Source: a virus
Lineage: Duplodnaviria; Heunggongvirae; Uroviricota; Caudoviricetes
Direction: 5' to 3' (one strand)
Length of the DNA stretch: 10,640 bases
IMG/VR virus record: IMGVR_UViG_2541047125_000015
Positions 1 to 10,640 of this stretch are shown piece after piece. The position numbers and the translations under genes are program-made. Numbering within the stretch: the stretch's first letter is position 1; every line of letters begins with the position of its first letter. A model generated the notes under the pieces. The model did no database searches. It saw only the letters and a list, made by a program, of their open reading frames with translations, and was not told where the DNA came from.

Positions 1-51
1 TAATTCCTGGCTAAACATCAAAAAGGCGACGTTGCCAGCGTATCCGGCACG

Positions 52-237
52 ATGCAGGTCAGCCAGTGGACCGGACAGAACGGGGAAACGCGGCAGGGTT
101 ATCAGGTTATTGCAGACAGCGTAATCAGTGCCCGTGCGGCACGTCCTGGTGGGAGCCGACGCAAGACCACAGGCACACAGGGTAATCAGCCACCAGCGGG
201 AGGCGATGACCCTTACGGTGATGATATTCCGTTCTGA
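52..237 (+). CDS. SSB-like C-terminal fragment (single-stranded DNA-binding protein tail); probably a truncated or disrupted ssb
   Basis: ORF ends ...PPAGGDDPYGDDIPF, the acidic DDIPF tip typical of bacterial and phage SSB. Upstream residues QWTGQNGETRQGYQVIADSV align by eye with the E. coli SSB segment KWTDQSGQDRYTTEVVVNV. An in-frame TAA sits at 1..3 and there is no Shine-Dalgarno before ATG52, so this is not a normal full-length ssb. Confidence 0.45.
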   Translation: MQVSQWTGQNGETRQGYQVIADSVISARAARPGGSRRKTTGTQGNQPPAGGDDPYGDDIPF

Positions 238-249
238 GGGGTGGGGACG

Positions 250-522
250 ATGGTACATGACCGCATAGCGGAAGAACTGGAGGCGAAAGGCTTTTACCGG
301 AGAGCGTCGGCGCGATGGGGTGAAGTCATGCAACTGGTGGAGACAGACAAGGAACGGCATCAGGTTACGATGCGACGGCTGGAATGTTCCAGGAAGGCAC
401 AGAGGCCACCGGAGCCGCCGGATAATTACGGAGACCTGAAAAAGGCGGTCGATCGCACTTATGCCGAAATGGGTATGGATGGTGCTGGTGATGAAATATG
501 GCGAAATTACCAGGACAGATAA
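250..522 (+). CDS. PerC-family transcriptional regulator-like small protein
   Basis: 91 aa from ATG250 (track start GTG241). MVHDRIAEELEAKGFYRRASARWGEVM...DKERHQVTMRRLEC fits the E..LE.KG.WRRAA.RW...D.ER.....RR..C pattern I recall for prophage PerC-like proteins. Recalled from memory, not searched. Start lies 13 nt after the SSB-like stop. Confidence 0.6.
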   Translation: MVHDRIAEELEAKGFYRRASARWGEVMQLVETDKERHQVTMRRLECSRKAQRPPEPPDNYGDLKKAVDRTYAEMGMDGAGDEIWRNYQDR

Positions 523-529
523 TCACACA

Positions 530-550
530 GCCGGAGCAATCCGGCTTTTT
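530..550 (+). terminator. Rho-independent terminator after the PerC-like gene
   Basis: GCCGGA-gcaa-TCCGGC hairpin followed directly by TTTTT, starting 8 nt after the TAA at 520..522. Confidence 0.55.
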
Positions 551-570
551 GTCATGTTTTGTAAATTATT

Positions 571-600
571 TGTTCGTGGTTGTTCCACGTTGTTCGCTGA
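571..600. repeat. Three helically phased TGTTC(G/C) direct repeats
   Basis: tgttcgtggt / tgttccacgt / tgttcgctga: TGTTC begins at 571, 581 and 591, exactly 10 bp apart. The same motif recurs at 8248 and 8258. Confidence 0.5.
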
Positions 601-672
601 CCGGATCGGCATATTTTACCCGAACTGAATCATGATTATTCTCGCCCGTGGTGCCAGGACGCTGGGGCCACT

Positions 673-719
673 TTCCCGCCTGTTAATGTGCTCGCCAATA
701 TTCATTACCAGGCGGGAAA
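673..719. promoter_or_regulatory. 16-bp imperfect inverted repeat upstream of the capsid gene
   Basis: ttcccgcctgttaatg (673..688) and cattaccaggcgggaa (704..719) are reverse complements with one mismatch, separated by 15 nt; no T-tract follows, so it is not a canonical terminator. Confidence 0.4.
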
Positions 720-809
720 ACGATCGGTGCGATTGCTGATTTCCTTATGAAAAACGGTTGAGTGTTTGCCGCGTCCTGGAGTTCCTTACTTAACTTCAGG
801 ACTTTTTTT

Positions 810-1967
810 ATGCCGAGAATAATCGAATTACGCCAGCAGAAAACCGCCATTAAAAATCAGATGCGCGACATGCTGGAGAACGCGGAAAAAGAAAACCGCA
901 GCCTTAACGATGCTGAGGGCGCAAAATTTGACGAATTACGCGCTAAAGCTGAATCCCTCGATAAAGACATCTCCCGCCTTGAGGCCGTTGCTGACGAAGA
1001 GCGCAGTAAACCAGGCAAAAACAGCCAGACCACTGACCCCGCCGAACTACGTCACTACATTCTGACAGGTGAAACCCGCGCATTGAGTACAGGCGTTCCC
1101 GCTGATGGTGGTTATACCGTTATCCCCGAACTGAACACCGAAATCATGCGAATGCTGACGGATGAATCCACCATGCGCCGCATCTGTACCGTGAAGAAAA
1201 TCAGCAGCAACGAGTTTAAGCAGCTTGTTTCCGCTGGCGGTGCGACCGTTAACCACGGTGAAGAGGGTAAGGCACGCGAACAGACCAGCACCCCGCAGAT
1301 TAACGAGGTGAGCATTAAGCTGTATCCGGTCTATGCGTACCCGCGCACCACGCAGGAAATCGTGGATTTTTCCGATGTGGACATCCTTTCATGGCTGACG
1401 GGCGAGATTGGCGACACCTTCACGGAAACCGAAGAAAGCGATCTGGTTGTGGGCGACGGTGACAAAAAAGCAAAAGGTTTTTTATCCGTACCCCGTGCAG
1501 AGAAGAACGACAAAGAGCGTGATTTTGGTACGTTGCAGGTAATTAAACCTTCCGAATCTCTGGCGTGGACATCTGCGGACCCGCTGATCGACCTGAAATT
1601 TGCATTACGTAAAAAATACCGCAAAAACGCGGTTTGGGTGGTTAACTCCACGACGGCGGCAAAACTCCAGAAGGTGAAGAACGCGAACGGTGATTACATC
1701 TGGCGCGACCGTTTACAGGCGGGTGATCCTGATACGTTGCTGGGCCTTCCGGTCGAATATCTGGAGTTTATGCCTGATAACGTTATTGCCCTGGGTGACT
1801 TCAAACGCGGTTACTACATTGTTGATCACGAAACAGGTGTTCGCACCAGACCGGACAACCTCACAGAGCCGGGCTTTATCAAAATTTTCACGCAGAAATA
1901 TTTAGGCGGTGGCGTGGTGGATTCGAACGCTATAAAGATTCTGGAACTGCCGCAGGACGACGATTAA
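810..1967 (+). CDS. Phage major capsid protein, HK97 family
   Basis: 385 aa from ATG810 (track ORF starts at GTG762; ATG810 has a better-placed SD-like cagga). N-terminal charged coiled-coil delta-like segment, then a large domain with motifs typical of HK97-fold capsids (ADGGYTVIPEL..., GDFKRGYYIVDH). Length and position next to the protease fit. Confidence 0.9.
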   Translation: MPRIIELRQQKTAIKNQMRDMLENAEKENRSLNDAEGAKFDELRAKAESLDKDISRLEAVADEERSKPGKNSQTTDPAELRHYILTGETRALSTGVPADGGYTVIPELNTEIMRMLTDESTMRRICTVKKISSNEFKQLVSAGGATVNHGEEGKAREQTSTPQINEVSIKLYPVYAYPRTTQEIVDFSDVDILSWLTGEIGDTFTETEESDLVVGDGDKKAKGFLSVPRAEKNDKERDFGTLQVIKPSESLAWTSADPLIDLKFALRKKYRKNAVWVVNSTTAAKLQKVKNANGDYIWRDRLQAGDPDTLLGLPVEYLEFMPDNVIALGDFKRGYYIVDHETGVRTRPDNLTEPGFIKIFTQKYLGGGVVDSNAIKILELPQDDD

Positions 1968-1976
1968 CAGCACACC

Positions 1977-2006
1977 GAAGGGGCTAAAAAGCCCCTTCTC
2001 TGTTTT
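1977..2006 (+). terminator. Rho-independent terminator after the capsid gene
   Basis: GAAGGGGC-taaaaa-GCCCCTTC (8-bp perfect stem) followed by tctgtttt, 10 nt after the capsid stop. Confidence 0.7.
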
Positions 2007-2021
2007 ACAGGTGAAAAAATT

Positions 2022-2579
2022 ATGATGAGTATGGAAATCCGGTCATCGGAAATCACCACCAGCGGCAGCAACACGCTTACGGGCTACGTTGTTCGCTGGG
2101 ATAACCTTTCAGAACTGCTATGGGGCGAATTTTACGAAAAATTCCAGCGGGGGGCGTTTACTGAATGGCTTGCGGTGGGTAATGACGTTCGCGGCCTGTA
2201 TGAGCATGACCACAGCATGTTACTGGGGCGCACCCGTTCCGGTACGCTGAGACTGGAAGAGGATGACACAGGGTTACGTTTTGAACTGATCCCACCGGAT
2301 ACCAGCACAGGGCGGGACGTTATCGAACTGGTTAAACGTGGTGACATCTCGGGCATGAGCTTTGGCTTTCGTTCCCGTAAGGATGTATGGGATACGACAG
2401 TCGATCCATGTGTGCGTACTGTACTGATAGCGGAACTGTACGAAATTACCGTGACATCCGTACCGGCTTACCCTGATTCCGGCGTGGAGCTGGCCCGCCG
2501 TTCCCTGTATGAGCAGCACCCTGAAAAAATGCCTCGTGCGGATAATCGCCGCTGGTGGGCGGATTTAGCGGGGGTGTGA
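2022..2579 (+). CDS. Prohead (maturation) protease, HK97 family
   Basis: 185 aa; GYVVRWDNLSE...RGLYEHDHSMLLGRTRSGTLRLEEDDTGLRFELIPPDTSTGRDVIELVKRGDISGMSFGF is the conserved core of HK97-type prohead proteases. SD-like aggtga 8 nt upstream. Confidence 0.9.
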   Translation: MMSMEIRSSEITTSGSNTLTGYVVRWDNLSELLWGEFYEKFQRGAFTEWLAVGNDVRGLYEHDHSMLLGRTRSGTLRLEEDDTGLRFELIPPDTSTGRDVIELVKRGDISGMSFGFRSRKDVWDTTVDPCVRTVLIAELYEITVTSVPAYPDSGVELARRSLYEQHPEKMPRADNRRWWADLAGV

Positions 2580-2580
2580 T

Positions 2581-3792
2581 ATGTGGCCTTTCAGAAGAAA
2601 AAAAGAGCAGCGCAGCATGACGCTTGATGAGTTTATGGCGCTGGCTGGCACATCGAACACGGGGGCGGGTGAGTACGTATCATCGGGGACAGCGGAATCA
2701 CTGCCCGCCGTCATGAACGCCGTCACGGTCATCTCTGAGGCGGTGGCTACCATGCCGTGTTACCTGTACCTGGTACGCAATGAGAAGGGGAAGGAGGCCC
2801 GAGAGTGGCTTGATTCTCATCCGGTCGATCACATCCTCAACGAGCGCCCGAACGCATGGCAAACCCCCTACCAGTTTAAGCGAATGATGATCCGCCACTG
2901 CCTGTTAAACGGTAATGCTTATGCGGTGATTCGGTGGGGGCGTGATGGTTTTCCGGTGGCTTTACATCCTTACCCGCCGCAGTCGGTGAACGTGGAGCAG
3001 ACAGGTGAGCATAACTGGCGCTACTGCATCACTGACGCCTACACCGGAAACACCCGCAACTATTTACCGTGGGAGGTTCTCCACCTTCGTTACTCCACGG
3101 ATGACGGTTTTATGGGGCGCTCACCTGTAACCATCTGCCGCGAATCGCTGGGGCTTGGGCTGGCCCAACAACGCCACGGCGCGAGCGTGATGCGTGATGG
3201 CATGATGGCGGCAGGGGTTATCACGTCAGGCGAGTGGCTGGACGGCGTGAAGGGTAAACAGGCATTAGCCGCACTGGAACGCTACAAAGGGGCCAGAAAC
3301 GCCGGAAAAACGCCCATCCTTGAAGGGGGTATGAGCTATCAGCAGCTGGGCATGAGTAATCAGGATGCTGAATGGCTGGCCTCCCGTCGCTTCACCATTG
3401 AAGACATCGCCCGAATGTTCAACGTCTCGCCGATTTTTTTGCAGGAATACAGCAACAGCACCTACAGCAATTTCAGCGAGGCAAGCCGCGCATTTCTCAC
3501 CATGACGATGCGCCCGTGGCTGGCGAACTTTGAGCAGCAGATAAAAAACGCCCTGCTGGTGGCCTCGCCTGTACCTGGTATCCGGTATCAGGTGGAGTTT
3601 GACAGCGCGGACCTGTTACGGGCCACACCTGGCGAACGCTTTGCCACCTATGAACGCGGCATCAAATCCGGCGTTATGTGCCCGAACGAAGCCCGCGAAC
3701 GTGAAGGGCTGTCCCCGCGTGATGGTGGTGATGAGTTCAGCCAGGCATGGAAACAGGAAGTAAAAATCAGCGAGGGAGAAAAACCGGAATGA
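2581..3792 (+). CDS. Phage portal protein, HK97 family
   Basis: 403 aa; portal-like blocks (LPAVMNAVTVISEAVATMP, NGNAYAVI, FTIEDIARMFNVSPIFLQEYSNSTYSNFSEASRAF). Start is 1 nt after the protease stop. Confidence 0.9.
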   Translation: MWPFRRKKEQRSMTLDEFMALAGTSNTGAGEYVSSGTAESLPAVMNAVTVISEAVATMPCYLYLVRNEKGKEAREWLDSHPVDHILNERPNAWQTPYQFKRMMIRHCLLNGNAYAVIRWGRDGFPVALHPYPPQSVNVEQTGEHNWRYCITDAYTGNTRNYLPWEVLHLRYSTDDGFMGRSPVTICRESLGLGLAQQRHGASVMRDGMMAAGVITSGEWLDGVKGKQALAALERYKGARNAGKTPILEGGMSYQQLGMSNQDAEWLASRRFTIEDIARMFNVSPIFLQEYSNSTYSNFSEASRAFLTMTMRPWLANFEQQIKNALLVASPVPGIRYQVEFDSADLLRATPGERFATYERGIKSGVMCPNEAREREGLSPRDGGDEFSQAWKQEVKISEGEKPE

Positions 3793-4127
3793 ACATAGGG
3801 CGACTGCGTGACAGGATAACGATTCAGACCCTGAAACAGACCAGGGATATAACCGGCGAAATACTCGAAACGTGGGTGGACGGTCACACACTCTGGGCAA
3901 GCGTGAACATGATCAGCAGCAAGGAGGCCATTTCATCGGGTGCAGAACTGGCGACTGGAACGGTAAGGATATGGATACGCTACAGGAAGGACATCAACGC
4001 CACCAGCCGGATAAAGGTCAATACGGGGCCGCTGGCGGGGCGTGTACTGAATATCATCGGGCAGCCGCTGCCGGATGCCGCCAGGACACGCCTTGAAATT
4101 CTTTGTCGTGAGGGCGCGGAAAAATGA
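3789..4127 (+). CDS. Head-tail adaptor / head closure protein (SPP1 gp16-like head-tail joining family)
   Basis: 113 aa from ATG3789, which overlaps the portal stop as ATGA (track ORF starts further upstream at 3747 inside the portal). RDRITIQTLKQTRDITGEILETWVDGHTLWASV...VRIWIRYRKDI...RLEILCRE matches the family pattern R.RI.I....TRD..G...E.W....WA.V ... IRYR.DI. Confidence 0.75.
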   Translation: MNIGRLRDRITIQTLKQTRDITGEILETWVDGHTLWASVNMISSKEAISSGAELATGTVRIWIRYRKDINATSRIKVNTGPLAGRVLNIIGQPLPDAARTRLEILCREGAEK

Positions 4128-4420
4128 CAGAAGAACTTATCACCCTGGAAGAAGTGAAACTCCATTGCCGCATCGATGGCGACGAGGAAGACCAGTTAAT
4201 CAGCGGATACATCGCCGCATCGCTTGAGGCGTGCCAGATACACATAGGCAGGCGCTTTGATGACGGGCTGGAGTTCACGCCAGCCATAAAGATTGGCTGC
4301 ATGATGTTTATCGCTCACCTGTATGAAAATCGCCAGATTGTCGCGGATAACGCAAAAACACGCGTACCCATGACGATTGGTGCACTCTGGACGGCTTACC
4401 GTGATGTGGGGGTGTACTGA
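4124..4420 (+). CDS. gp6-like head-tail connector protein
   Basis: 98 aa; LITLEEVKLHCRIDGDEEDQLISGYIAASLEA is the characteristic N-terminus of gp6-like connector proteins. Start overlaps the adaptor stop by 4 nt. Confidence 0.8.
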   Translation: MTEELITLEEVKLHCRIDGDEEDQLISGYIAASLEACQIHIGRRFDDGLEFTPAIKIGCMMFIAHLYENRQIVADNAKTRVPMTIGALWTAYRDVGVY

Positions 4421-4860
4421 TGCCGTGGCAACCATTAAGACGATGCACAGAACCAGGCTGTAACAGGCGCGTGAAGTCCGGCAAGTGTGAGGAGCACAGG
4501 CGGGCGGCATGGCGTGCAGAGGATGCCAGACGAGGACACCGCCGCGCGCGTGGGTACTCCAGACAGTGGGACAAATACCGCGCCATGTATCTGAGTAAAA
4601 ACCCGTTATGCGTGCGATGCCTTGAGAAGGGGATATATACGCCCGCCGTGGTGGTGGATCACATTATCCCGATTAATGGCGGTGATGATGTTCTCTTCTG
4701 GCCCGAATGGAACCATCAGCCATTGTGCCAGGCGTGCCATAACCAGAAAACGAAATGGCTTGATCCGGCAACAAAAAGCAAGCGTGCCGCAGGTGGATTT
4801 CGTGAAGAGGAAGAACGGGCCGCTAACCGCAATAACTGGATGTATGACGCTGATGAATGA
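4420..4860 (+). CDS. HNH endonuclease (phage packaging-associated)
   Basis: 146 aa; Cys-rich N-terminus (CTEPGC...GKCEEH), then VVDHIIPI...NHQPLCQACHNQKT, the HNH His/Asn and zinc-binding Cys/His pattern. Sits immediately upstream of terS as in HK97-like phages; start overlaps the connector stop by 1 nt. Confidence 0.85.
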   Translation: MPWQPLRRCTEPGCNRRVKSGKCEEHRRAAWRAEDARRGHRRARGYSRQWDKYRAMYLSKNPLCVRCLEKGIYTPAVVVDHIIPINGGDDVLFWPEWNHQPLCQACHNQKTKWLDPATKSKRAAGGFREEEERAANRNNWMYDADE

Positions 4861-5026
4861 GCGGGAACAAAACCGCCTTATCCGTGGACTTATAAGGCAG
4901 CGTGACGCATGGAAGACACAGGAAACAGGGCATAAAGATAAAGCGTCAGGACGCGCAGAACGCATCACAGCGAAGCGATTAACCGACCGTGACTGCGAGG
5001 TTATGGAATGTTTCCGCAATCGCTGA
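4844..5026 (+). CDS. Possible small basic ORF between HNH and terS (uncertain)
   Basis: Only the distal 60 codons of track ORF 4622..5026 lie outside the HNH gene. ATG4844 or ATG4853 would give about 58-61 aa (MNEREQNRLIRGLIRQRDAWK...). No convincing SD; may be non-coding cos-flanking DNA. Confidence 0.2.
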   Translation: MTLMNEREQNRLIRGLIRQRDAWKTQETGHKDKASGRAERITAKRLTDRDCEVMECFRNR

Positions 5027-5037
5027 TGAGGCTGTAT

Positions 5038-5082
5038 GACGGGGTGGGGGGCGTTTTCAGGACAAACCCGCCCCCGCCGGGC
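5038..5082. promoter_or_regulatory. Candidate cos / terminase recognition region (G-run and C-run dyad)
   Basis: gacggggtggggggcg ... cccgcccccgccgggc; gggggcg (5047..5053) is complementary to cgccccc (5069..5075). It lies in the 288-bp gap between HNH and terS, where HK97-like phages place cos. An AT-rich stretch follows. Confidence 0.3.
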
Positions 5083-5148
5083 ACCGAACGCCTCCTCAAA
5101 TTTTTATGCACGGGAATTTTTTGAAAAATAATCTGACGAAAAATAAAC

Positions 5149-5505
5149 ATGGCAAGACCACCGAAAGCCCCCGCCTACCTTGATGACATCGCCGTAAAGC
5201 AGTGGCGGGAAAAATCGCGCCAGCTTGCGGAACGGGGAGACCTCACCCCCGCCGACTGGAGTAATCTCGAACTGTATTGCGTCAACTACTCGATATACAG
5301 GAAAGCCGTCGCAGACCTTGCGGCACGCGGGTTCAGCATTGTTAACAGTCAGGGCGGAGAGAGCAGAAACCCCGCATTAAGCGCGAAATCCGACGCTGAA
5401 AGAGTGATGATAAAAATGGCCTCCTTGCTTGGTTTTGACCCGATAAGCCGCCGTAAAAATCCACCGGAAACAGAAGAAGAGGACGAGCTTGACCACCTGG
5501 AATAA
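5149..5505 (+). CDS. terS: Terminase small subunit, P27 family
   Basis: 118 aa; LTPADWSNLELYCVNYSIYRKAVADLAARGF...NPALSAKSDAERVMIKMASLLGF fits the P27-type small terminase pattern, and it sits directly upstream of terL. Confidence 0.85.
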   Translation: MARPPKAPAYLDDIAVKQWREKSRQLAERGDLTPADWSNLELYCVNYSIYRKAVADLAARGFSIVNSQGGESRNPALSAKSDAERVMIKMASLLGFDPISRRKNPPETEEEDELDHLE

Positions 5506-7150
5506 GTACGCAGAAGACGTAAAAACGGGCAAAATTCCGGCCTGTAAACGGTTAAAACAGGCCGTTAAACGGTACTTTTCGGACCTTAAAAGTCCCCTTT
5601 ACACGTTCGATAGTGAGGTTGTGGAGCGGTTTATTGCCTTTTCAAGGGTGTGCCCGCACGTAAAAGGGCCGTTGCGTGGCAGACCCATTGAGCTGGAGCC
5701 GTGGCAGCAGTTCGCCTTTGCGTGCATCCTGGGTTTTAAGGTTAAGGCCACCGGACGGCGCAAATACTCGAGCGCTTTTATCGAAGTACCGCGAAAAAAT
5801 GCGAAATCCACGACCGCCGCGATTCTGGCTGACTGGTTTCTGATTATGGAGAACGGGCAGCAGGATATTTACACCGCAGCGGTGAGCCGTGACCAGGCAC
5901 GGATCGTGTTTGATGATGCGCGTCAGATGTGCCTTTTATCCCGACCGTTACGCAGGCGGGTGAATATTCAGGCCCACAAGGTGATACACCCGAAAACCAA
6001 CAGCCTGTTAAAGCCGCTGGCAGCAAAAGCGGCAACCATCGAGGGGACAAACCCGAGTCTTGCCATTGTGGACGAATATCACCTGCACCCCGATAACGGC
6101 GTTTATTCCGCGCTTGAGCTGGGGATGGGTGCACGTCCCGAAGGGCTGTTATTTGCCATTACCACATCGGGAAGTAACGTCGTTTCAGCCTGTAAGCAGC
6201 ACTATGATTATTGCTGCCAGATCCTGGACGGCGAAGAGGTCAACGAATCGCTTTTTGTGCTGATTTACGAGCTGGACGATGAAAACGAGGTTGACGATCC
6301 GGCGATGTGGATAAAGGCGAATCCCAATATCGATGTTTCCGTTGATCGTGAAAAACTGGCCTCAACCATCCAGAAAGCGCGGGGTATTCCGTCGCAGTGG
6401 GTGGAGATGATGACAAAGCGGTTTAACATCTGGTGCCAGGGGGCCACCCCGTGGATGGGTAACGGGGCGTGGGCTGAGTGTGCCGGAACGTTCACGGAGG
6501 AGGATTTACACGGCCAGGAATGTTACGCGGGGCTTGATTTGTCATCCACAAGCGACATTTCCAGCGTGTGCTATGCCTTTCCGGTCGGCAAAAAAATTAT
6601 GCTGCTTTCCCGTCACTATCTGCCGGAATTTCAGCTACAGAACCCCGCCAACAAGAACCGGGCCATTTATCGCCAGTGGGCTAAATCGGGCTGGTTGCGG
6701 ATAACGCCGGGCGACTGCATTGATTACGACCGGATCCGCGATGACATCATGGAGGACGCGGAAAAATTTGATATCAGGCTGGTGGGCTTTGATACGTGGA
6801 ACGCCACGCATCTCAGGACGCAATTACAGGGGGCAGGGTTTGAGGTTGAGCCGTTCCCGCAAACCTATCTGAGATTCAGTCCGGCGGCGAAATCGTTCGA
6901 AGTTTTTGTTAACCGCAGGGTGATAGTCCATCGTGATGATCCGGTGTTGTCGTGGTCGATGAGTAACGTCGTGATGCAGAGTGACGCGAACGCCAATATC
7001 AAGCCAAACAAGAAAAAATCACCGAACAAGATAGACCCGAGCGTGGCGGCACTGATGGCGTTTGGCACATTCCAGGCAGAGCATGAAGATTTTGCTTTTG
7101 ATATAAGCGACAGCCACCGCGAAAAACTGGAAGAATTTAACGGGGTGTGA
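5489..7150 (+). CDS. terL: Terminase large subunit
   Basis: 553 aa; an ATPase-like N-terminal region (PRKNAKSTTAA) and a nuclease-like C-terminal region. Starts at TTG5489, the only start codon after the in-frame stop at 5444..5446, with SD gagga 5 nt upstream. Overlaps terS by 17 nt. Confidence 0.9.
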   Translation: MTTWNKYAEDVKTGKIPACKRLKQAVKRYFSDLKSPLYTFDSEVVERFIAFSRVCPHVKGPLRGRPIELEPWQQFAFACILGFKVKATGRRKYSSAFIEVPRKNAKSTTAAILADWFLIMENGQQDIYTAAVSRDQARIVFDDARQMCLLSRPLRRRVNIQAHKVIHPKTNSLLKPLAAKAATIEGTNPSLAIVDEYHLHPDNGVYSALELGMGARPEGLLFAITTSGSNVVSACKQHYDYCCQILDGEEVNESLFVLIYELDDENEVDDPAMWIKANPNIDVSVDREKLASTIQKARGIPSQWVEMMTKRFNIWCQGATPWMGNGAWAECAGTFTEEDLHGQECYAGLDLSSTSDISSVCYAFPVGKKIMLLSRHYLPEFQLQNPANKNRAIYRQWAKSGWLRITPGDCIDYDRIRDDIMEDAEKFDIRLVGFDTWNATHLRTQLQGAGFEVEPFPQTYLRFSPAAKSFEVFVNRRVIVHRDDPVLSWSMSNVVMQSDANANIKPNKKKSPNKIDPSVAALMAFGTFQAEHEDFAFDISDSHREKLEEFNGV

Positions 7151-7164
7151 ATGAGGTTCCAGGC

Positions 7165-7446
7165 ATGACAGAGGCCGAAATACTGGGATTAATCCGCCGC
7201 GTTGCCGGAATCAGCCAGCAGGCTGACGAACAGGCCGCGCAGCCGGACAGCGTGACCGCCGAAAATTATGCGCGTGTGGTTGCTGAGGTGATGCGCCGTG
7301 ATGGTATCCAGCTTAACGATGTAGATATGCGCAACATACGGATCCGCGTTCTTGAAATGCTGGCCTACCGTCGCCGCGTTGAGATGTATCGGGAGAAAGA
7401 GAAAATTACTTACCACTGGAAGAAGCCGGAACGATTGCGGCGGTAA
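7165..7446 (+). CDS. Small hypothetical protein downstream of terL
   Basis: 93 aa from ATG7165 (SD gagg 8 nt upstream; track start GTG7147 overlaps the terL stop). Protein-like composition (MTEAEILGLIRRVAGISQQADEQ...RRRVEMYREKEK); no family recognised. Confidence 0.5.
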   Translation: MTEAEILGLIRRVAGISQQADEQAAQPDSVTAENYARVVAEVMRRDGIQLNDVDMRNIRIRVLEMLAYRRRVEMYREKEKITYHWKKPERLRR

Positions 7447-7461
7447 CTTGCTGATATTCCC

Positions 7462-7505
7462 GATAACGCAAAATTGCGCTGGCTGACTTGTTGCATTGCA
7501 AAAAG
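7462..7505. repeat. Direct repeat A, copy 1 (about 43 bp)
   Basis: gataacgcaaaattgcgctggctgacttgttgcattgcaaaaag. Shares GATAACGC..ATTGCGCTGGCTG...TGCA with copy 2 and contains the palindrome ttgcaTtgcaa. Confidence 0.55.
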
Positions 7506-7600
7506 TTAAGCAGGAAGGCACGGCCTGTAAGATGGGATGCAGTAAGTAGTTCAAGGCTACCTTGTGCTGGCACGCACAGTTAAGCCGTCGGTGCTGGATA

Positions 7601-7615
7601 TCCCCCACTGGGGGA
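7601..7615. promoter_or_regulatory. Perfect 15-bp palindrome TCCCCCA-c-TGGGGGA
   Basis: Read directly from the sequence; lies between the two A repeats. Confidence 0.5.
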
Positions 7616-7647
7616 AAAGCTGGCTACATCCCTCACATCTGAGGACT

Positions 7648-7690
7648 GATAACGCGACATTGCGCTGGCTGGCAAAGTGCAAAATTGCAC
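7648..7690. repeat. Direct repeat A, copy 2 (about 43 bp)
   Basis: gataacgcgacattgcgctggctggcaaagtgcaaaattgcac; roughly 70% identical to copy 1 by eye; ends in the palindrome gtgcaAAATtgcac. Confidence 0.55.
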
Positions 7691-7697
7691 GATGGCC

Positions 7698-7858
7698 TAA
7701 CCCATTGATTATTTCGAAAACCTGCAATGCAGGAAATCGGGGAAGTAAGCCTAAGCTATTGATTGTTTCGAAAACCCTCATTGGGGGATGTCGGGAAAGT
7801 AAGACTAACCCATTGATTCTTCCACAATCCTCAATTTGAGGAGGCAGGGAACATCCCC
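7698..7858. repeat. Tandem array of three ~53-55-bp direct repeat units (B1-B3), each with a TTTCGAAA-type palindrome and a short hairpin
   Basis: Units at 7698..7750, 7751..7805 and 7806..7858 share TAAcCcATTGATT - TTTCGAAAACC - 13-nt hairpin - G-rich tail. Hairpins: cctgcAATgcagg, ccctcATTggggg, cctcaATTtgagg. Confidence 0.65.
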
Positions 7859-7894
7859 TAAATCCGGTGATGTATTCGGCCCCTTTAACGGGTA

Positions 7895-7930
7895 TTGCGA
7901 TTTTCGCAACCCCCTACGAAATTTTCGTAG
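7895..7930. promoter_or_regulatory. Two adjacent dyads built on CGAAA/TTTCG half-sites
   Basis: ttgcg-atttt-cgcaa (7895..7909) and the perfect inverted repeat CTACGAAA-t-TTTCGTAG (7914..7930); same half-site as the TTTCGAAA cores of the B units. Confidence 0.45.
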
Positions 7931-7955
7931 TTTAATTACTCGTCAGATTAATCGC

Positions 7956-8007
7956 TAACCCACTGATATTTTCGGAAACCTCAATTTGAGGAGGCCGGAA
8001 CGTCTAC
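7956..8007. repeat. Fourth B-type repeat unit (B4), about 100 bp downstream of the tandem array
   Basis: taacccactgatattttcggaaacctcaatttgaggaggccggaacgtctac; same architecture, and its hairpin cctcaATTtgagg is identical to that of B3. Confidence 0.6.
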
Positions 8008-8240
8008 ATAGCTGCATCGCCGTAATGATGATTCAGCCCACCAGCCAAATCAGCACAGCAACGACAGAATAGCCCGACACAGAAAAACCACGAATATGGG
8101 GTTTTTGTTATGGCATGGTCATGATGACCGCCCCTGCTCTGAATGGTGGAAATCACCACGCAGATCATCAACCAGCTTCATGACGGATAGCCGGAAAATG
8201 ATAACGGTTAAGCAAAACCATCAGCAAATTTCCCTTTTGT

Positions 8241-8304
8241 TTGTTATTGTTCGTCGTTGTTCGTAGAGCTTCAACGAAATGTGTGGTCAGTTGTGTGGTC
8301 AGTT
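8241..8304. promoter_or_regulatory. Phased TGTTCGT repeats plus a perfect 12-bp tandem duplication just upstream of int
   Basis: TGTTCGT at 8248 and 8258 (10-bp phasing, preceded by ttgtttgttat); gtgtggtcagtt repeated exactly twice at 8281..8292 and 8293..8304, 36 bp before the int start. Confidence 0.5.
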
Positions 8305-8339
8305 TTTTGGGGCTGGAGGACTGAAAAGAGGATCTGATA

Positions 8340-9560
8340 GTGGGAAAAGCACTAAACAAACTGAGCGATTCGACATTAAAAAAATTGGCGGCTGTCCAGG
8401 CAGAAAAAGAGCGTTTTTACTCCGACGGGGGCGGGCTGGAGATTAAACACTCAAAAGGCGGAAAATTAACCTGGTATTTCCGGTACCGAACGGGAGGCCG
8501 TGAGGTTGCCGCAGAGCGGTTAAAGCTGGGGGCTTACCCTGAATTGTCGCTGAAAGCTGCAAGGGAAAAACGCGCACAGTGCCGGGCATGGCTGGCTGAG
8601 GGTAAAAACCCCCGTTATGAGTTGTGCGCCACAGTACAGGAAGCGCTAAAACCCGTTACGGTGAAGGAGGCGATTAACTACTGGCTGGAGGAATATGCGA
8701 AGGATAACCGCAAAGACTACATAAAGCTGGTGCAACGTATGGATAAGCACATCATTTGCCATATAGGGGCAATTCCTCTTGATAAATGCGACACAAGGCA
8801 GTGGATCGCATGTTTTGACCGTGTACGAAAAAAAGCACCAGTAGCAGCGGGGCACGTCATGCAAACCTGCAAACAGGCGCTAAAGTTCTGCCGCAGGAGA
8901 CGCTACGCGTTCAGTAATGCCCTGGACGATTTGATCGTCAGCGATGTGGGTAAGAGAGCAGAAATTCGCGAGAGGGTGCACAGTAACAGCGAATTAAAGG
9001 AAATTTTACGCGCTATTGATGGTGATGTGTTCGCGCCTTACTACAGCGCGTTAATGCGCTTGCTGATTGTGTTCGGGTGCAGAACTGCAGAGGTCAGACT
9101 TTCAGAGATCAAAGAATGGGATCTGAAAGAAATGTTGTGGACAGTGCCAAAAGAGCACAGCAAAACGAAGGTAACGATATTCAGGCCAATCCCCGATGGC
9201 ATTTTGCCGTTCATTCAGAAGCTGGTGGATCAGAACCGGCATACAGGGTTATTGCTCGGAGAACTGAAAAAAGATACCACGGTAGCGCAATATGGGCGAA
9301 ATGCGCATAAGCGGCTTAACCAGGAACATTGGTCACTGCATGACTTTCGCCACACGTTTACAACGATGCTGAACGATTTAGGTGTCGATCCGCATATCGT
9401 GGAGCACATCACAGCGCATCAGATGCCCGGTCAGCAAAAAACCTATAACCATTCACGCTATTTACAGGCGAAGCGGGACGCTCTGAATCTGTGGGTTGAG
9501 CGCCTCGATGTGCTGGCTGGAAATCATGAAAATATTGTTATGCTGAAGGTGGCCAAATGA
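8340..9560 (+). CDS. int: Tyrosine site-specific integrase, P4 type
   Basis: 406 aa from GTG8340 with SD aagagga upstream. N-terminal arm-binding-type region (LEIKHSKGGKLTWYFRYRTGGREV...LGAYPELSLKAAREKR) and C-terminal catalytic region with LHDFRHTF (H-x-x-R) and a downstream Tyr (KTYNHSRYL). Confidence 0.9.
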   Translation: MGKALNKLSDSTLKKLAAVQAEKERFYSDGGGLEIKHSKGGKLTWYFRYRTGGREVAAERLKLGAYPELSLKAAREKRAQCRAWLAEGKNPRYELCATVQEALKPVTVKEAINYWLEEYAKDNRKDYIKLVQRMDKHIICHIGAIPLDKCDTRQWIACFDRVRKKAPVAAGHVMQTCKQALKFCRRRRYAFSNALDDLIVSDVGKRAEIRERVHSNSELKEILRAIDGDVFAPYYSALMRLLIVFGCRTAEVRLSEIKEWDLKEMLWTVPKEHSKTKVTIFRPIPDGILPFIQKLVDQNRHTGLLLGELKKDTTVAQYGRNAHKRLNQEHWSLHDFRHTFTTMLNDLGVDPHIVEHITAHQMPGQQKTYNHSRYLQAKRDALNLWVERLDVLAGNHENIVMLKVAK

Positions 9561-10330
9561 AATTACCTAAAAGACTCTATTATCCGTTACCTGAAGCGGC
9601 AGAAAAGTTAGGCTGTGCAATAAAAGATCTTTATCATTACGCATATATAGGTGCTCTTAATATTTCTGTATATATACCAAAAATTGATGCTAAAAAATTC
9701 AATTTTTCATTATGTCATTTTATCAATGGTTGTAATGAGGAAGAATTAATAAAATATCCTTTCAATGATGAATCTGCTGTTTTTGGAAGTAATTTTACAG
9801 TTGGTTTAACTGGTGACACTGAATTTTTAGATAGTGCCATTATTGGTCCTGTAGGGAATTCTATCAAATGTTATTATGTTAGCAGCTTATCAGGGTTTTA
9901 TTATACTCCGGCATATGTTTTTGCTGATGTCGAATTTAGCATGAGACAATATATAAAATGTTCTCATCTTACGAATAAGTATGGTGATGATAATCTCATG
10001 TATGTTTTTTGTAAGGGTGGTTATGAATTTGATGTTAACTATTTGTGTGTGATGGCTAGTGATTTAGATAATATAAAAAATACGGGAGACTTCCCGAAGA
10101 TAACAGAAGATAGCCCAAAAGCATCGTCAAAAAGGAATGAGGTTATTTACTCTTTAATTAAACTTATTCCAGAAATGGGTGATGTAGACCTGGACACGGA
10201 ATCATTACCTAAAATAGCAGATTTAATTGATTCTATAGCTGCATCCAGAGGGATAGAATTTCCAAAAACACATTGGCAGACATGGCAAAAGTATTTGGGG
10301 CGTGAATCTCAACAAAAACGTAAAAAGTGA
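9557..10330 (+). CDS. AT-rich hypothetical protein (orphan cargo gene), translationally coupled to int
   Basis: 257 aa; ATG9557 overlaps the int stop as ATGA, with SD-like aaggtgg upstream. The DNA is visibly AT-rich (about one-third G+C by eye, versus about half in int) with AAA/ATT/TTT-rich codons. N-terminal RLYYPLPEAAEKLGCAIKDLYHYAYIG loosely resembles an AlpA/excisionase-type HTH; the rest matches nothing I recognise. Confidence 0.7.
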   Translation: MKLPKRLYYPLPEAAEKLGCAIKDLYHYAYIGALNISVYIPKIDAKKFNFSLCHFINGCNEEELIKYPFNDESAVFGSNFTVGLTGDTEFLDSAIIGPVGNSIKCYYVSSLSGFYYTPAYVFADVEFSMRQYIKCSHLTNKYGDDNLMYVFCKGGYEFDVNYLCVMASDLDNIKNTGDFPKITEDSPKASSKRNEVIYSLIKLIPEMGDVDLDTESLPKIADLIDSIAASRGIEFPKTHWQTWQKYLGRESQQKRKK

Positions 10331-10359
10331 TATCACGTGCTGGTAGTGTGATATCACAC
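10327..10359. promoter_or_regulatory. Two copies of the palindrome GTGATATCAC, 21 bp centre to centre (candidate operator)
   Basis: gtgatatcac at 10327..10336 (overlapping the orphan stop) and at 10348..10357, the latter within the 14-bp palindrome gtgtgatatcacac (10346..10359). Spacing is two helical turns. Confidence 0.5.
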
Positions 10360-10386
10360 AAACGGCGTTTTACTACCGCCTAGAAT

Positions 10387-10421
10387 CGTCCTCGTTCGGC
10401 AACGTTCGAGGACGTTTTTTT
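10387..10421 (+). terminator. Hairpin plus T7 tract abutting the alpA start codon (terminator or 5'-UTR structure)
   Basis: CGTCCTCG - 12-nt loop - CGAGGACG followed by ttttttt and then ATG10422. The 3' arm contains the only SD-like sequence (gagga) for alpA. Confidence 0.5.
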
Positions 10422-10640
10422 ATGAATCAAAATACACAATTTCAATCACTATCAGATCGCGTAATCCGTGAGGATGAATGCCGTAAGTTAACAGGAGTGT
10501 GCCGCACTACACGCTACGAACTGGAGAAAAAAGGGAATTTCCCGTCACGCCGTAATCTGGGTGGTCGTTCAGTAGGTTGGCTGCTTTCCGAGGTTATGGA
10601 ATGGGTTAAAAGCCGGGATCGTATTAATTCAGGCAAGGCA
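10422..10640 (+). CDS. alpA: AlpA-family phage regulatory protein (HTH), 3' end cut by the window
   Basis: MNQNTQFQSLSDRVIREDECRKLTGVCRTTRYELEKKGNFPSRRNLGGRSVGWLLSEVMEWV matches the AlpA/excisionase-like pattern (hydrophobic-R-x-x-E-x-x-x-x-TG-x-x-R-x-T-x-Y-x-x-x-x-x-G-x-FP...GGR.V.W...EV..W). The ORF runs to the last base of the window. Confidence 0.8.
   Translation, partial: MNQNTQFQSLSDRVIREDECRKLTGVCRTTRYELEKKGNFPSRRNLGGRSVGWLLSEVMEWVKSRDRINSGKA

Follow-up and report, generated by a model that had tools for sequence, protein, structure and literature searches.

Candidate twin operator and anti-Shine-Dalgarno hairpin at the predicted alpA promoter of a capsid-forming phage satellite

The DNA analysed here (the window) is the whole 10,640-nucleotide stretch of the virus record IMGVR_UViG_2541047125_000015 (Caudoviricetes), and the subject is the short region at positions 10327 to 10421, immediately upstream of alpA, for which an earlier note had proposed an operator and a regulatory hairpin. 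By alignment, the window is a circularly permuted capsid-forming phage-inducible chromosomal island (PICI; cf-PICI for the capsid-forming type), a phage satellite of E. coli O157. Three genes on the plus strand set the scene: the tyrosine integrase gene int (8340-9560, 406 amino acids, identified from the open reading frame list and the annotation of an identical chromosomal copy), an orphan gene (9557-10330, 257 amino acids) and alpA (10422-10640). The last is cut by the end of the window; the full protein, whose translation was taken from the related locus L001, has 74 amino acids and belongs to the Phage_AlpA family (Pfam PF05930, E = 3e-16). The orphan gene has a GC content of 32% compared with 51% for the window, its ATG overlaps the TGA stop codon of int (ATGA at 9557-9560), and its product is the candidate regulator for the palindromes described below.

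Within Gram-negative PICIs, alpA serves as master activator of the satellite's cycle, with a role beyond that in excision (PMC6092414). It is induced by helper phages and activates itself, the inducer having been given no identity (PMC6092414, PMC11773190, 10.1101/2022.09.08.507074); AlpA turns on its own promoter in EcCICFT073 (PMC6092414) and in EcCIMP1 (PMC11773190). The promoter responds to helper phages and not to the SOS response, and is silent without a helper (PMC6092414). In that study the phage inducer was stated to be 'under study' and the global repressor 'unclear', and the account of EcCIMP1 is similar (PMC11773190); our literature search found no later paper defining the cis-elements or the trans-factor of alpA induction.

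The region begins with palindrome 1, GTGATATCAC (10327-10336, no strand), which contains the orphan stop codon (TGA at 10328-10330). After an 11-nt spacer (10337-10347) comes palindrome 2 (10346-10359), in which a second copy of GTGATATCAC (10348-10357) forms the core of a perfect 14-bp palindrome, GTGTGATATCACAC, so that the copies are 21 bp apart, start to start. Palindrome 2 is separated by 23 variable bases (counted from its core) from a -10-like hexamer, TAGAAT (10381-10386, plus strand), which directly abuts a hairpin (10387-10414, plus strand) made up of a 5' arm CGTCCTCG (10387-10394, complementary to a Shine-Dalgarno (SD) sequence), a 12-nt loop and a 3' arm CGAGGACG (10407-10414). 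The only SD-like motif, GAGGA (10408-10412, plus strand), lies within the 3' arm, 9 nt before the ATG, and a T7 tract (10415-10421, plus strand) fills the remaining distance. This arrangement of paired 10-bp palindromes, the first overlapping the stop codon of an AT-rich orphan gene, followed by a GC-rich 8-bp stem holding the only SD-like sequence and by a T-run, is essentially that given in the earlier note, except that the T-run abuts the alpA ATG directly instead of ending one base before it.

Relatives of the region were gathered in three independent ways, namely by similarity to AlpA (44 IMG/VR loci), by an exact or relaxed twin-palindrome pattern, and by similarity to the orphan protein, the last of which is blind to the DNA motif. 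A scan of genome contigs with the single AlpA protein gave distant, unrelated loci only.

The palindromes are rare and highly conserved. The window contains only two matches to GTGATATCAC, even if one mismatch is allowed, and the 26-kb chromosomal copy of the island contains only two copies; a uniform model predicts roughly 1e-5 exact twins of any 10-bp palindrome at a given spacing in a sequence of 10.6 kb. Across 2.9 million IMG/VR contigs the exact twin was found in only 11 loci, and 8 of these 11 are this same module upstream of alpA. Around 25 divergent relatives share a gapless layout over approximately 95 bp, consisting of the orphan stop codon (usually a TGA inside palindrome 1), palindrome, 11-nt spacer, palindrome, 28-29 nt, a hairpin of 26-28 nt, about 8 nt, and the ATG; this layout holds in every locus with an orphan homologue ending in '...TW.KYLGR'. 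The alpA ATG is placed 93-95 nt from the start of palindrome 1 across the relatives, and the ATGAAY position at the start of alpA is conserved among them. The two palindromes have mean pairwise identities of 0.96 and 0.92, as compared to 0.32 for the spacer, which is fixed in length and free in sequence, and 0.34 for the 22 nt that follow palindrome 2.

Pairs of GTGAWWTCAC, spaced 20-22 bp apart as in all modules, are present as well in loci that were collected only by way of the orphan protein. Variants among them are GTGAATTCAC, GTGAAATCAC or GTGATTTCAC, and some second copies have decayed; these variants suggest that the recognised core is tGTGA-WW-TCACa. The consensus site of CRP, TGTGA-N6-TCACA, is not matched, since the half-sites here are 2 bp apart. 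In each island the motif is present as this single pair only. The conservation of the palindromes amid diverged spacers, their fixed phasing and their fixed distance to the start of alpA support the view that they behave as a candidate protein-binding operator. An exact GTGATATCAC twin is also found in locus L010 (2165-2195), where it follows an ORF6N/antirepressor-like gene and precedes CGCTTTTTATTTTT; that structure looks like an ordinary terminator hairpin.

Within the loci compared, the palindromes travel with the orphan gene and never with AlpA alone, and this co-occurrence is seen in both directions. The palindromes are present in all loci with a class-A orphan, the type found here, and in none of about 40 alpA loci that lack the orphan (L019-L060), whose AlpA proteins are 92-100% identical to the one here over residues 12-74. 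One such case is L023, which has the same integrase, a 92%-identical AlpA and a different gene of 284 amino acids in the slot between int and alpA; here the hexamer and hairpin are kept and the palindromes are missing. Conversely, in L015 the AlpA protein is only 58% identical, yet the palindromes are identical. A second orphan subfamily (C-terminus '...GIKPPV.G..L..WL.DVELDY') is accompanied by different, class-B twins, TGGAAWWTTCCA, with the 21-bp spacing and the distance to the hairpin both unchanged; they lie inside the 3' coding end of the orphan gene in L069 and L118 and after its stop codon in L071-73 and L120. Class-A and class-B modules share the putative recognition-helix region of AlpA, CRTTRY. 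More distant orphan members (L122 and L123) have other inverted repeats at the same spot. In one module represented by L067 and L106, the orphan, twin palindromes and hairpin are followed by a gene that does not resemble alpA (MLNTIFTPPTPEQRRNILAEYG...).

The orphan protein (WP_000775337) belongs to a family of approximately 390 clusters at 50% identity, and the order int-orphan-alpA is kept in nearly all family members whose context was examined. It is made up of an N-terminal winged helix of the excisionase/MerR type, a variable beta-rich middle part and a conserved helical C-terminal domain. No Pfam domain was matched in the protein, the C-terminal domain gave no match to a DNA-binding fold, and a literature search with the accession gave no hits. 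Given that the two ends are conserved (pairwise identity 0.54) and the beta-rich middle is variable (0.26), the protein is possibly a sensor, perhaps of a helper phage.

The hairpin was examined by folding and by covariation. The segment 10380-10424 folds with a predicted energy of -19 kcal/mol (z = -4.95), and none of 200 shuffled sequences was as stable; the stem can be extended by pairing 10382-10385 with 10416-10419. In a gapless alignment of 20 distinct sequences, 94.5% of the cells were paired and both sides had changed in 7 of the 11 pairs (for example CTCG/CGAG in some sequences and CCTG/CAGG in others). The covariation score was 0.476 compared with 0.252 for shuffled alignments, with none of 500 shuffles as high, and controls in which the pairing was slid gave 0.08-0.20. 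In all relatives the SD lies within the 3' arm. On the basis of these comparisons, the feature is real and under selection.

The T-run is less constant. The U-tract is gone while the hairpin is kept in L013 (ATTAGATT), L014 (ATATCCAT), L064 (ATGCCCCA), L015 (ATTTAAAT) and also L063, which suggests that termination is a lineage-specific addition and that masking of the SD is the conserved role. The suggestion in the earlier note that transcripts from int and the orphan terminate here therefore fits this lineage, where stem and T7 tract resemble an intrinsic terminator, but not a conserved function. The terminator scan did not list the hairpin, as it accepts loops of up to 8 nt and the loop here has 12. 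A search of Rfam gave no family at gathering score, the only match being to a ctRNA hairpin with 19.9 bits against a cut-off of 50.

A candidate start of transcription was sought by scoring -10 and -35 matrices over 120 aligned columns of 14 anchored modules. The column of the hexamer that abuts the hairpin had a mean score of 3.41 bits, with all modules above 1.5, and the next best column reached 0.77; it is thus the only conserved -10-like element in the alignment. The hexamers seen include TAGAAT, TACAAT, CAGAAT, CAAAAT, CAATAT, CACTAT and TTAAAT. No -35 signal was present 16-18 nt upstream of the hexamer in the 14 modules, and the columns most like a -35 fall in the GTGATA halves of the palindromes, 21-26 nt away and so too distant. 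A start located 7-8 nt past the hexamer (10393-10394, predicted) would centre palindrome 2 at -40.5 to -41.5 and palindrome 1 at -61.5 to -62.5 in the window; the scan of the modules gives -39.5 to -41.5 and -60.5 to -62.5. Positions -41.5 and -61.5 are the classic positions for class II and class I activators, respectively. In modules without the orphan a TTG is found at the -35 position (TTGcac-16-TAAGAT in L023 and TTGctt-17-AAAAAT in L028). Each of the two matches at only 3 of 6 positions and neither is called by the scan; TTGCAC in L023 was accordingly dropped as a strong -35, and the comparison is a weak contrast only.

This placement bears directly on the hairpin. The alpA transcript probably starts inside it, judging from the hexamer, and because the -10 abuts the hairpin, alpA's own transcript would lack the anti-SD strand. 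The computed probability that the SD region is unpaired is 0.00-0.22 in read-through RNA compared with 0.35-0.72 in RNA started 7 nt after the hexamer; for the 9-nt SD stretch of this window, the values are 0.08 and 0.47, respectively. In L009, L014, L016, L028, L063, L064, L066 and L081-L085 the junction between hexamer and stem reads AATGC, which gives an ATG in frame with alpA 12 codons upstream (e.g. MLSNLSEREHFF-M...). The window, L013 and L015 lack this upstream ATG, which is therefore probably a by-product, although a gene caller could choose it as the start.

AlpA itself appears to have other sites. The protein is a winged helix of the recombination directionality factor (RDF) type, with a match to the GIsul2 AlpA-family excisionase (PDB 8c3t, E = 1e-10) and a weak one to TorI. 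Searches of the PDB by phmmer and by profile showed similarity to no other chain and thus detected no relation between this AlpA and the AlpA antiterminator of P. aeruginosa, whose structure has reportedly been solved, and an analogy with antitermination was dropped for lack of detectable sequence similarity. RDF-type winged-helix proteins bind phased direct repeats. Such a repeat, GTTCG-N5-GTTCG (10394-10408, plus strand), spans the loop of the hairpin and provides candidate AlpA boxes. Three GTTYG boxes with 10-bp phasing are found just upstream of int (8239-8263, plus strand), and three GTTCG/GTTCC boxes with the same phasing follow the perC terminator and precede the capsid gene (572-596, plus strand). 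In total the box motif occurs 8 times in the island compared to 1.5 expected, and none of 100 shuffles had as many. Most relatives carry CGAAC-N5-CGAAC, the inverse of the repeat here, and the orphan-less modules L029-L060 have CGAAC repeats about 130 bp upstream of the alpA ATG; in more divergent islands, GTTCG/GTTCA boxes are present upstream of int in some cases (L009, L016) and the pattern is not clean. The loop reads GTTCGgcaacGTTCG here and CGAACnnnnnCGAAC in L009, L016 and L028, with the self-complementary stem unchanged, and appears to have been flipped by recombination between the arms. This inversion between lineages suggests that the repeats act as DNA and not as RNA. AlpA's own sites are, as far as the sequence comparisons go, probably the loop repeats and not the palindromes.

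Taken together, the region may be the alpA promoter-operator-leader of one cassette type of Gram-negative PICIs. The interpretation that we favour, and in which we place about equal measures of belief and doubt, is that the palindromes make up a twin operator, bound probably by the orphan protein and acting on an alpA promoter that has no -35 and starts inside an anti-SD hairpin. The operator would be bound on one helix face, about 41 and 62 bp upstream of the start, by a symmetric regulator, probably a dimer of dimers, and the most likely binder would be the product of the orphan gene, which is located immediately upstream and translationally coupled to int. Since the promoter has a -10 (TAGAAT) and no -35, this regulator is likelier to be an activator than a repressor; the operator proposed in the earlier note is consistent with the conservation, phasing and fixed distance of the palindromes, but the dimeric repressor proposed to bind it is not the preferred candidate.

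The transcript of alpA would then begin atop the 5' arm, without the anti-SD strand, and be translatable. Read-through transcripts from int and the orphan would hold the whole hairpin with the SD masked, and in this lineage the T7 tract would in addition terminate them. In this way the hairpin may insulate the master activator from constitutive upstream transcription. That the structure exists is shown by covariation; its insulating role is deduced from the placement of the start. The possibility raised earlier that the hairpin gates the translation of alpA accordingly needs division: masking of the SD agrees with the covariation, while gating of alpA's own mRNA does not agree with a transcript that probably starts inside the hairpin, and insulation from upstream transcription is suggested instead of a switch in that mRNA. 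Likewise, a regulatory switch is plausible at this gene, but alpA is the master activator and not an excision factor only (PMC6092414).

A broader and more tentative proposal, which we consider possible but on balance doubtful, is that the orphan family supplies the induction switch so far missing for a large part of the Gram-negative PICIs and cf-PICIs, in the form of a sensor-regulator encoded by the satellite. The middle domain would recognise a product of the helper phage, and the conserved part would bind the twin operator at -41/-62 and turn on alpA. Operator specificity would have diversified along with the orphan protein into at least two classes, and with the promoter embedded in the anti-SD hairpin AlpA would be made only upon the signal borne by the orphan and not from transcription of int.

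Several observations weigh against the favoured interpretation, and those concerning the binder are considered first. The operator class tracks the C-terminal domain of the orphan, and since this domain is encoded beside or over the sites, linkage alone could yield the correlation; in addition, the N-terminal winged helix does not differ between the operator classes. The orphan could also be cargo, because the slot between int and alpA is a reported hot spot for accessory and immune genes in PICIs (PMC11364771). Finally, class-B twins (TGGAAATTTCCA-N9-TGGAAATTTCC) are present in P2-like phage contigs (L092 at 5465-5497, and also L093-L095, L100 and L101), where they lie just after a terminator between the tail tube gene and the next downstream gene. 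Based on its position, we take this gene to be gpE-like. The presence of class-B twins in a P2-like tail operon leaves room for a phage-encoded binder.

These points speak for a serious rival, which we judge less likely than the favoured interpretation, namely that the palindromes dock a regulator other than the orphan protein, such as a helper-phage factor like P2 Ogr, another island protein or a host factor, with the orphan being linked accessory or defence cargo. It is in line with this explanation that helper phages induce the alpA promoter via a factor to which no identity has been given (PMC6092414) and that the C-terminus of the orphan lacks a match to a DNA-binding fold. However, the palindromes and the orphan co-occur without exception in both directions even though alpA has recombined freely with other upstream modules, and the operator sequence shifts with the orphan subfamily. 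A host factor in particular fails to explain at least two specificity classes within Enterobacterales. Phage HK106, a helper of the related EcCIEDL933, contains no GTGAWWTCAC, which speaks against a helper-phage site but is a weak test given that EcCIEDL933 may carry the other alpA module and HK106 may then not act as helper for the module studied here.

Other observations concern the start of the transcript. It was placed from the position weight matrix alone, and the generic promoter scan does not call an alpA promoter, finding no -35. Three relatives have TTAAAT, with a T at the critical second position. Since the A/T hexamer can pair with the ATTT after the stem as a stem extension, its conservation could be purely structural, and one compensatory change in this extension was observed (in L014). 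The loop boxes would be located at about +1 to +15 of the predicted start, which fits repression and not the positive autoregulation reported for another PICI.

A second alternative, to which we attach low probability, is that the alpA mRNA starts upstream of the hairpin, for example at the int/orphan promoter or near the palindromes, and that the hairpin is a true switch in that mRNA. Translation or read-through would be released by a factor acting in trans, for instance AlpA or a helper protein working on the loop repeats, or by an antiterminator. The SD is located in the 3' arm throughout, the hairpin covaries, the loop contains conserved repeats, a second unit of hairpin, T7 and ATG precedes the capsid gene, and the A/T hexamer is explainable as a stem extension, all of which favours this alternative. 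Against this, the sole conserved -10-like element in the 120 aligned columns abuts the stem, the inversion of the loop between lineages (GTTCG versus CGAAC) makes it less likely that the loop is recognised in RNA form, this AlpA is not detectably related by sequence to the antiterminator of P. aeruginosa, and the rigid DNA spacing between palindromes and hairpin is not needed by a switch that operates on RNA only.

The earlier note had also considered that the palindromes might be AlpA's own autoregulatory operator. The sites are directly upstream of alpA, and self-activation of the promoter by AlpA is on record for EcCICFT073 and EcCIMP1, but the idea is contradicted by the approximately 40 palindrome-less loci with AlpA proteins near-identical over the DNA-binding region, by the diverged AlpA with identical palindromes, and by a recognition-helix region common to the two operator classes. 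Moreover, an RDF-type AlpA would be expected on phased direct repeats, and these are enriched in the alpA hairpin and in the regions upstream of both int and the capsid gene. We therefore regard autoregulation by AlpA at the palindromes as very improbable.

Least credible of all is that the palindromes act as RNA, the two copies forming a 10-bp stem that stabilises or terminates the orphan mRNA at its 3' end: the predicted fold does pair the two copies, the unrelated L010 twin is followed by a T-run in a terminator-like manner, and in L067 and L085 an AA of one copy faces a TT of the other so that they can still pair, but each copy is itself palindromic, which pairing between copies would not need, neither the loop length of 11 nt nor the distance to the hairpin varies, L063, L064 and L066 break the pairing between copies and keep the GTGA/TCAC half-sites, and no alpA module has a T-run after the palindromes.

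With regard to known systems, the closest are the PICI alpA promoters of EcCICFT073, EcCIMP1 and EcCIEDL933, which concern the same gene in the same type of element and are helper-dependent and positively autoregulated; the papers define no cis-elements or trans-factor for them (PMC6092414, PMC11773190, 10.1101/2022.09.08.507074). The orphan-less int-alpA modules L029-L060, which have neither the orphan nor palindromes nor a hairpin at the ATG, may be the PICI type studied in that work. Satellite P4 offers another comparison, as its late promoters PLL and Psid, activated by P2 Ogr, P4 Delta and Cox, include a satellite promoter upstream of the alpA homologue vis that is switched on via a dyad upstream of the -35 region; the Ogr/Delta site is, however, a single TGT-N12-ACA near -55, and no such motif is present here. 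In concept, Stl of the Staphylococcus aureus pathogenicity islands (SaPIs) together with its antirepressors is also similar, in that a DNA-binding protein of the satellite with a variable sensor part couples induction to the helper. Stl is divergently transcribed and a proven repressor, while the orphan is co-oriented and coupled with int and belongs to an unrelated family.

The proposed promoter resembles class I and class II sigma-70 promoters (CRP at -61.5/-41.5; lambda CI at OR2 on PRM) in having a -10 without a -35 and tandem, putatively cooperative dyads around -41 and -62 on one face. It differs from the CRP case in the site, tGTGAWWTCACa, where the TGTGA and TCACA halves are separated by 2 bp instead of CRP's 6, and a repressor role is possible. 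For the hairpin, the parallel is fold-back inhibition in IS10 and IS50, by which these elements are said (Davis, Simons and Kleckner, 1985) to be protected from outside transcription. There, as proposed here, the 5' segment of read-through RNA pairs with the ribosome-binding site and the element's own promoter starts inside the structure, giving a translatable transcript. The present case would differ in that the protected gene is the master activator of a satellite and not a transposase, that the transcription to be shut out arises within the element, in its int operon, that the U-tract adds termination in this lineage, and that the start is predicted. An ordinary intrinsic terminator shares the GC-rich stem and the T7 tract directly downstream of the int-orphan operon, but not the 12-nt loop, the absence of the U-tract in many homologues or the double use of the 3' arm as the SD of the next gene.

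The region makes the induction of Gram-negative PICIs by helper phages a testable question. For a widespread cassette it supplies candidates for a twin operator, a promoter without a -35, an anti-SD insulator, AlpA boxes and a trans-factor, WP_000775337. Given that such islands mobilise virulence and anti-phage genes and are being engineered as delivery vehicles, control of their master switch is of practical value. If true, the arrangement would be a further natural case of a promoter inside a hairpin that shields a dangerous gene from read-through.

The assignment of the window to an island was based on alignment to E. coli O157. Positions 1-8300 align with the right part of the O157 island (perC, capsid, protease, portal, connectors, HNH, TerS and TerL) and positions 8237-10640 with the left end of the same island (int, the hypothetical orphan gene and alpA), the gene order of the island being int, orphan, alpA, icd, primase, SSB, perC, capsid, protease, portal, HNH, TerS and TerL. 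This gene content matches that described for cf-PICIs (10.1101/2022.09.08.507074). In the window the terminase end is joined straight to the att/int end, which in the chromosome (NZ_CP039834) are the right and left ends of the island, and since the window is circularly permuted relative to the chromosomal island, its source may be an excised circle, a concatemer or a packaged form.

The same regulatory region was also found in another island. In E. coli O157:H7 FRIK2455 (locus L091, 1075900-1080990), the orphan, intergenic region and AlpA are identical, and the integrase and the site of integration (yljB/cspD to clpS) are different. The joining of an identical cassette to a different integrase suggests that the regulator cassette moves between islands as a module. 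EDL933, for which transcription start data have been published, has no island at this cspD-clpS site, and start data turned up for no strain with the module.

Three further features of the window were observed. Between the GTTCG boxes and the start of int there is a tandem direct repeat of two copies of GTGTGGTCAGTT (8281-8304), which are possibly arm-type sites of the integrase. A canonical terminator follows perC (530-550, GCCGGA gcaa TCCGGC TTTTT), directly before the GTTCG boxes of the capsid operon. The start of the capsid gene mirrors the design seen at alpA (773-812), with a hairpin GTCCTG...CAGGAC that has AGGA in its 3' arm, followed by a T7 tract and the ATG at 810.

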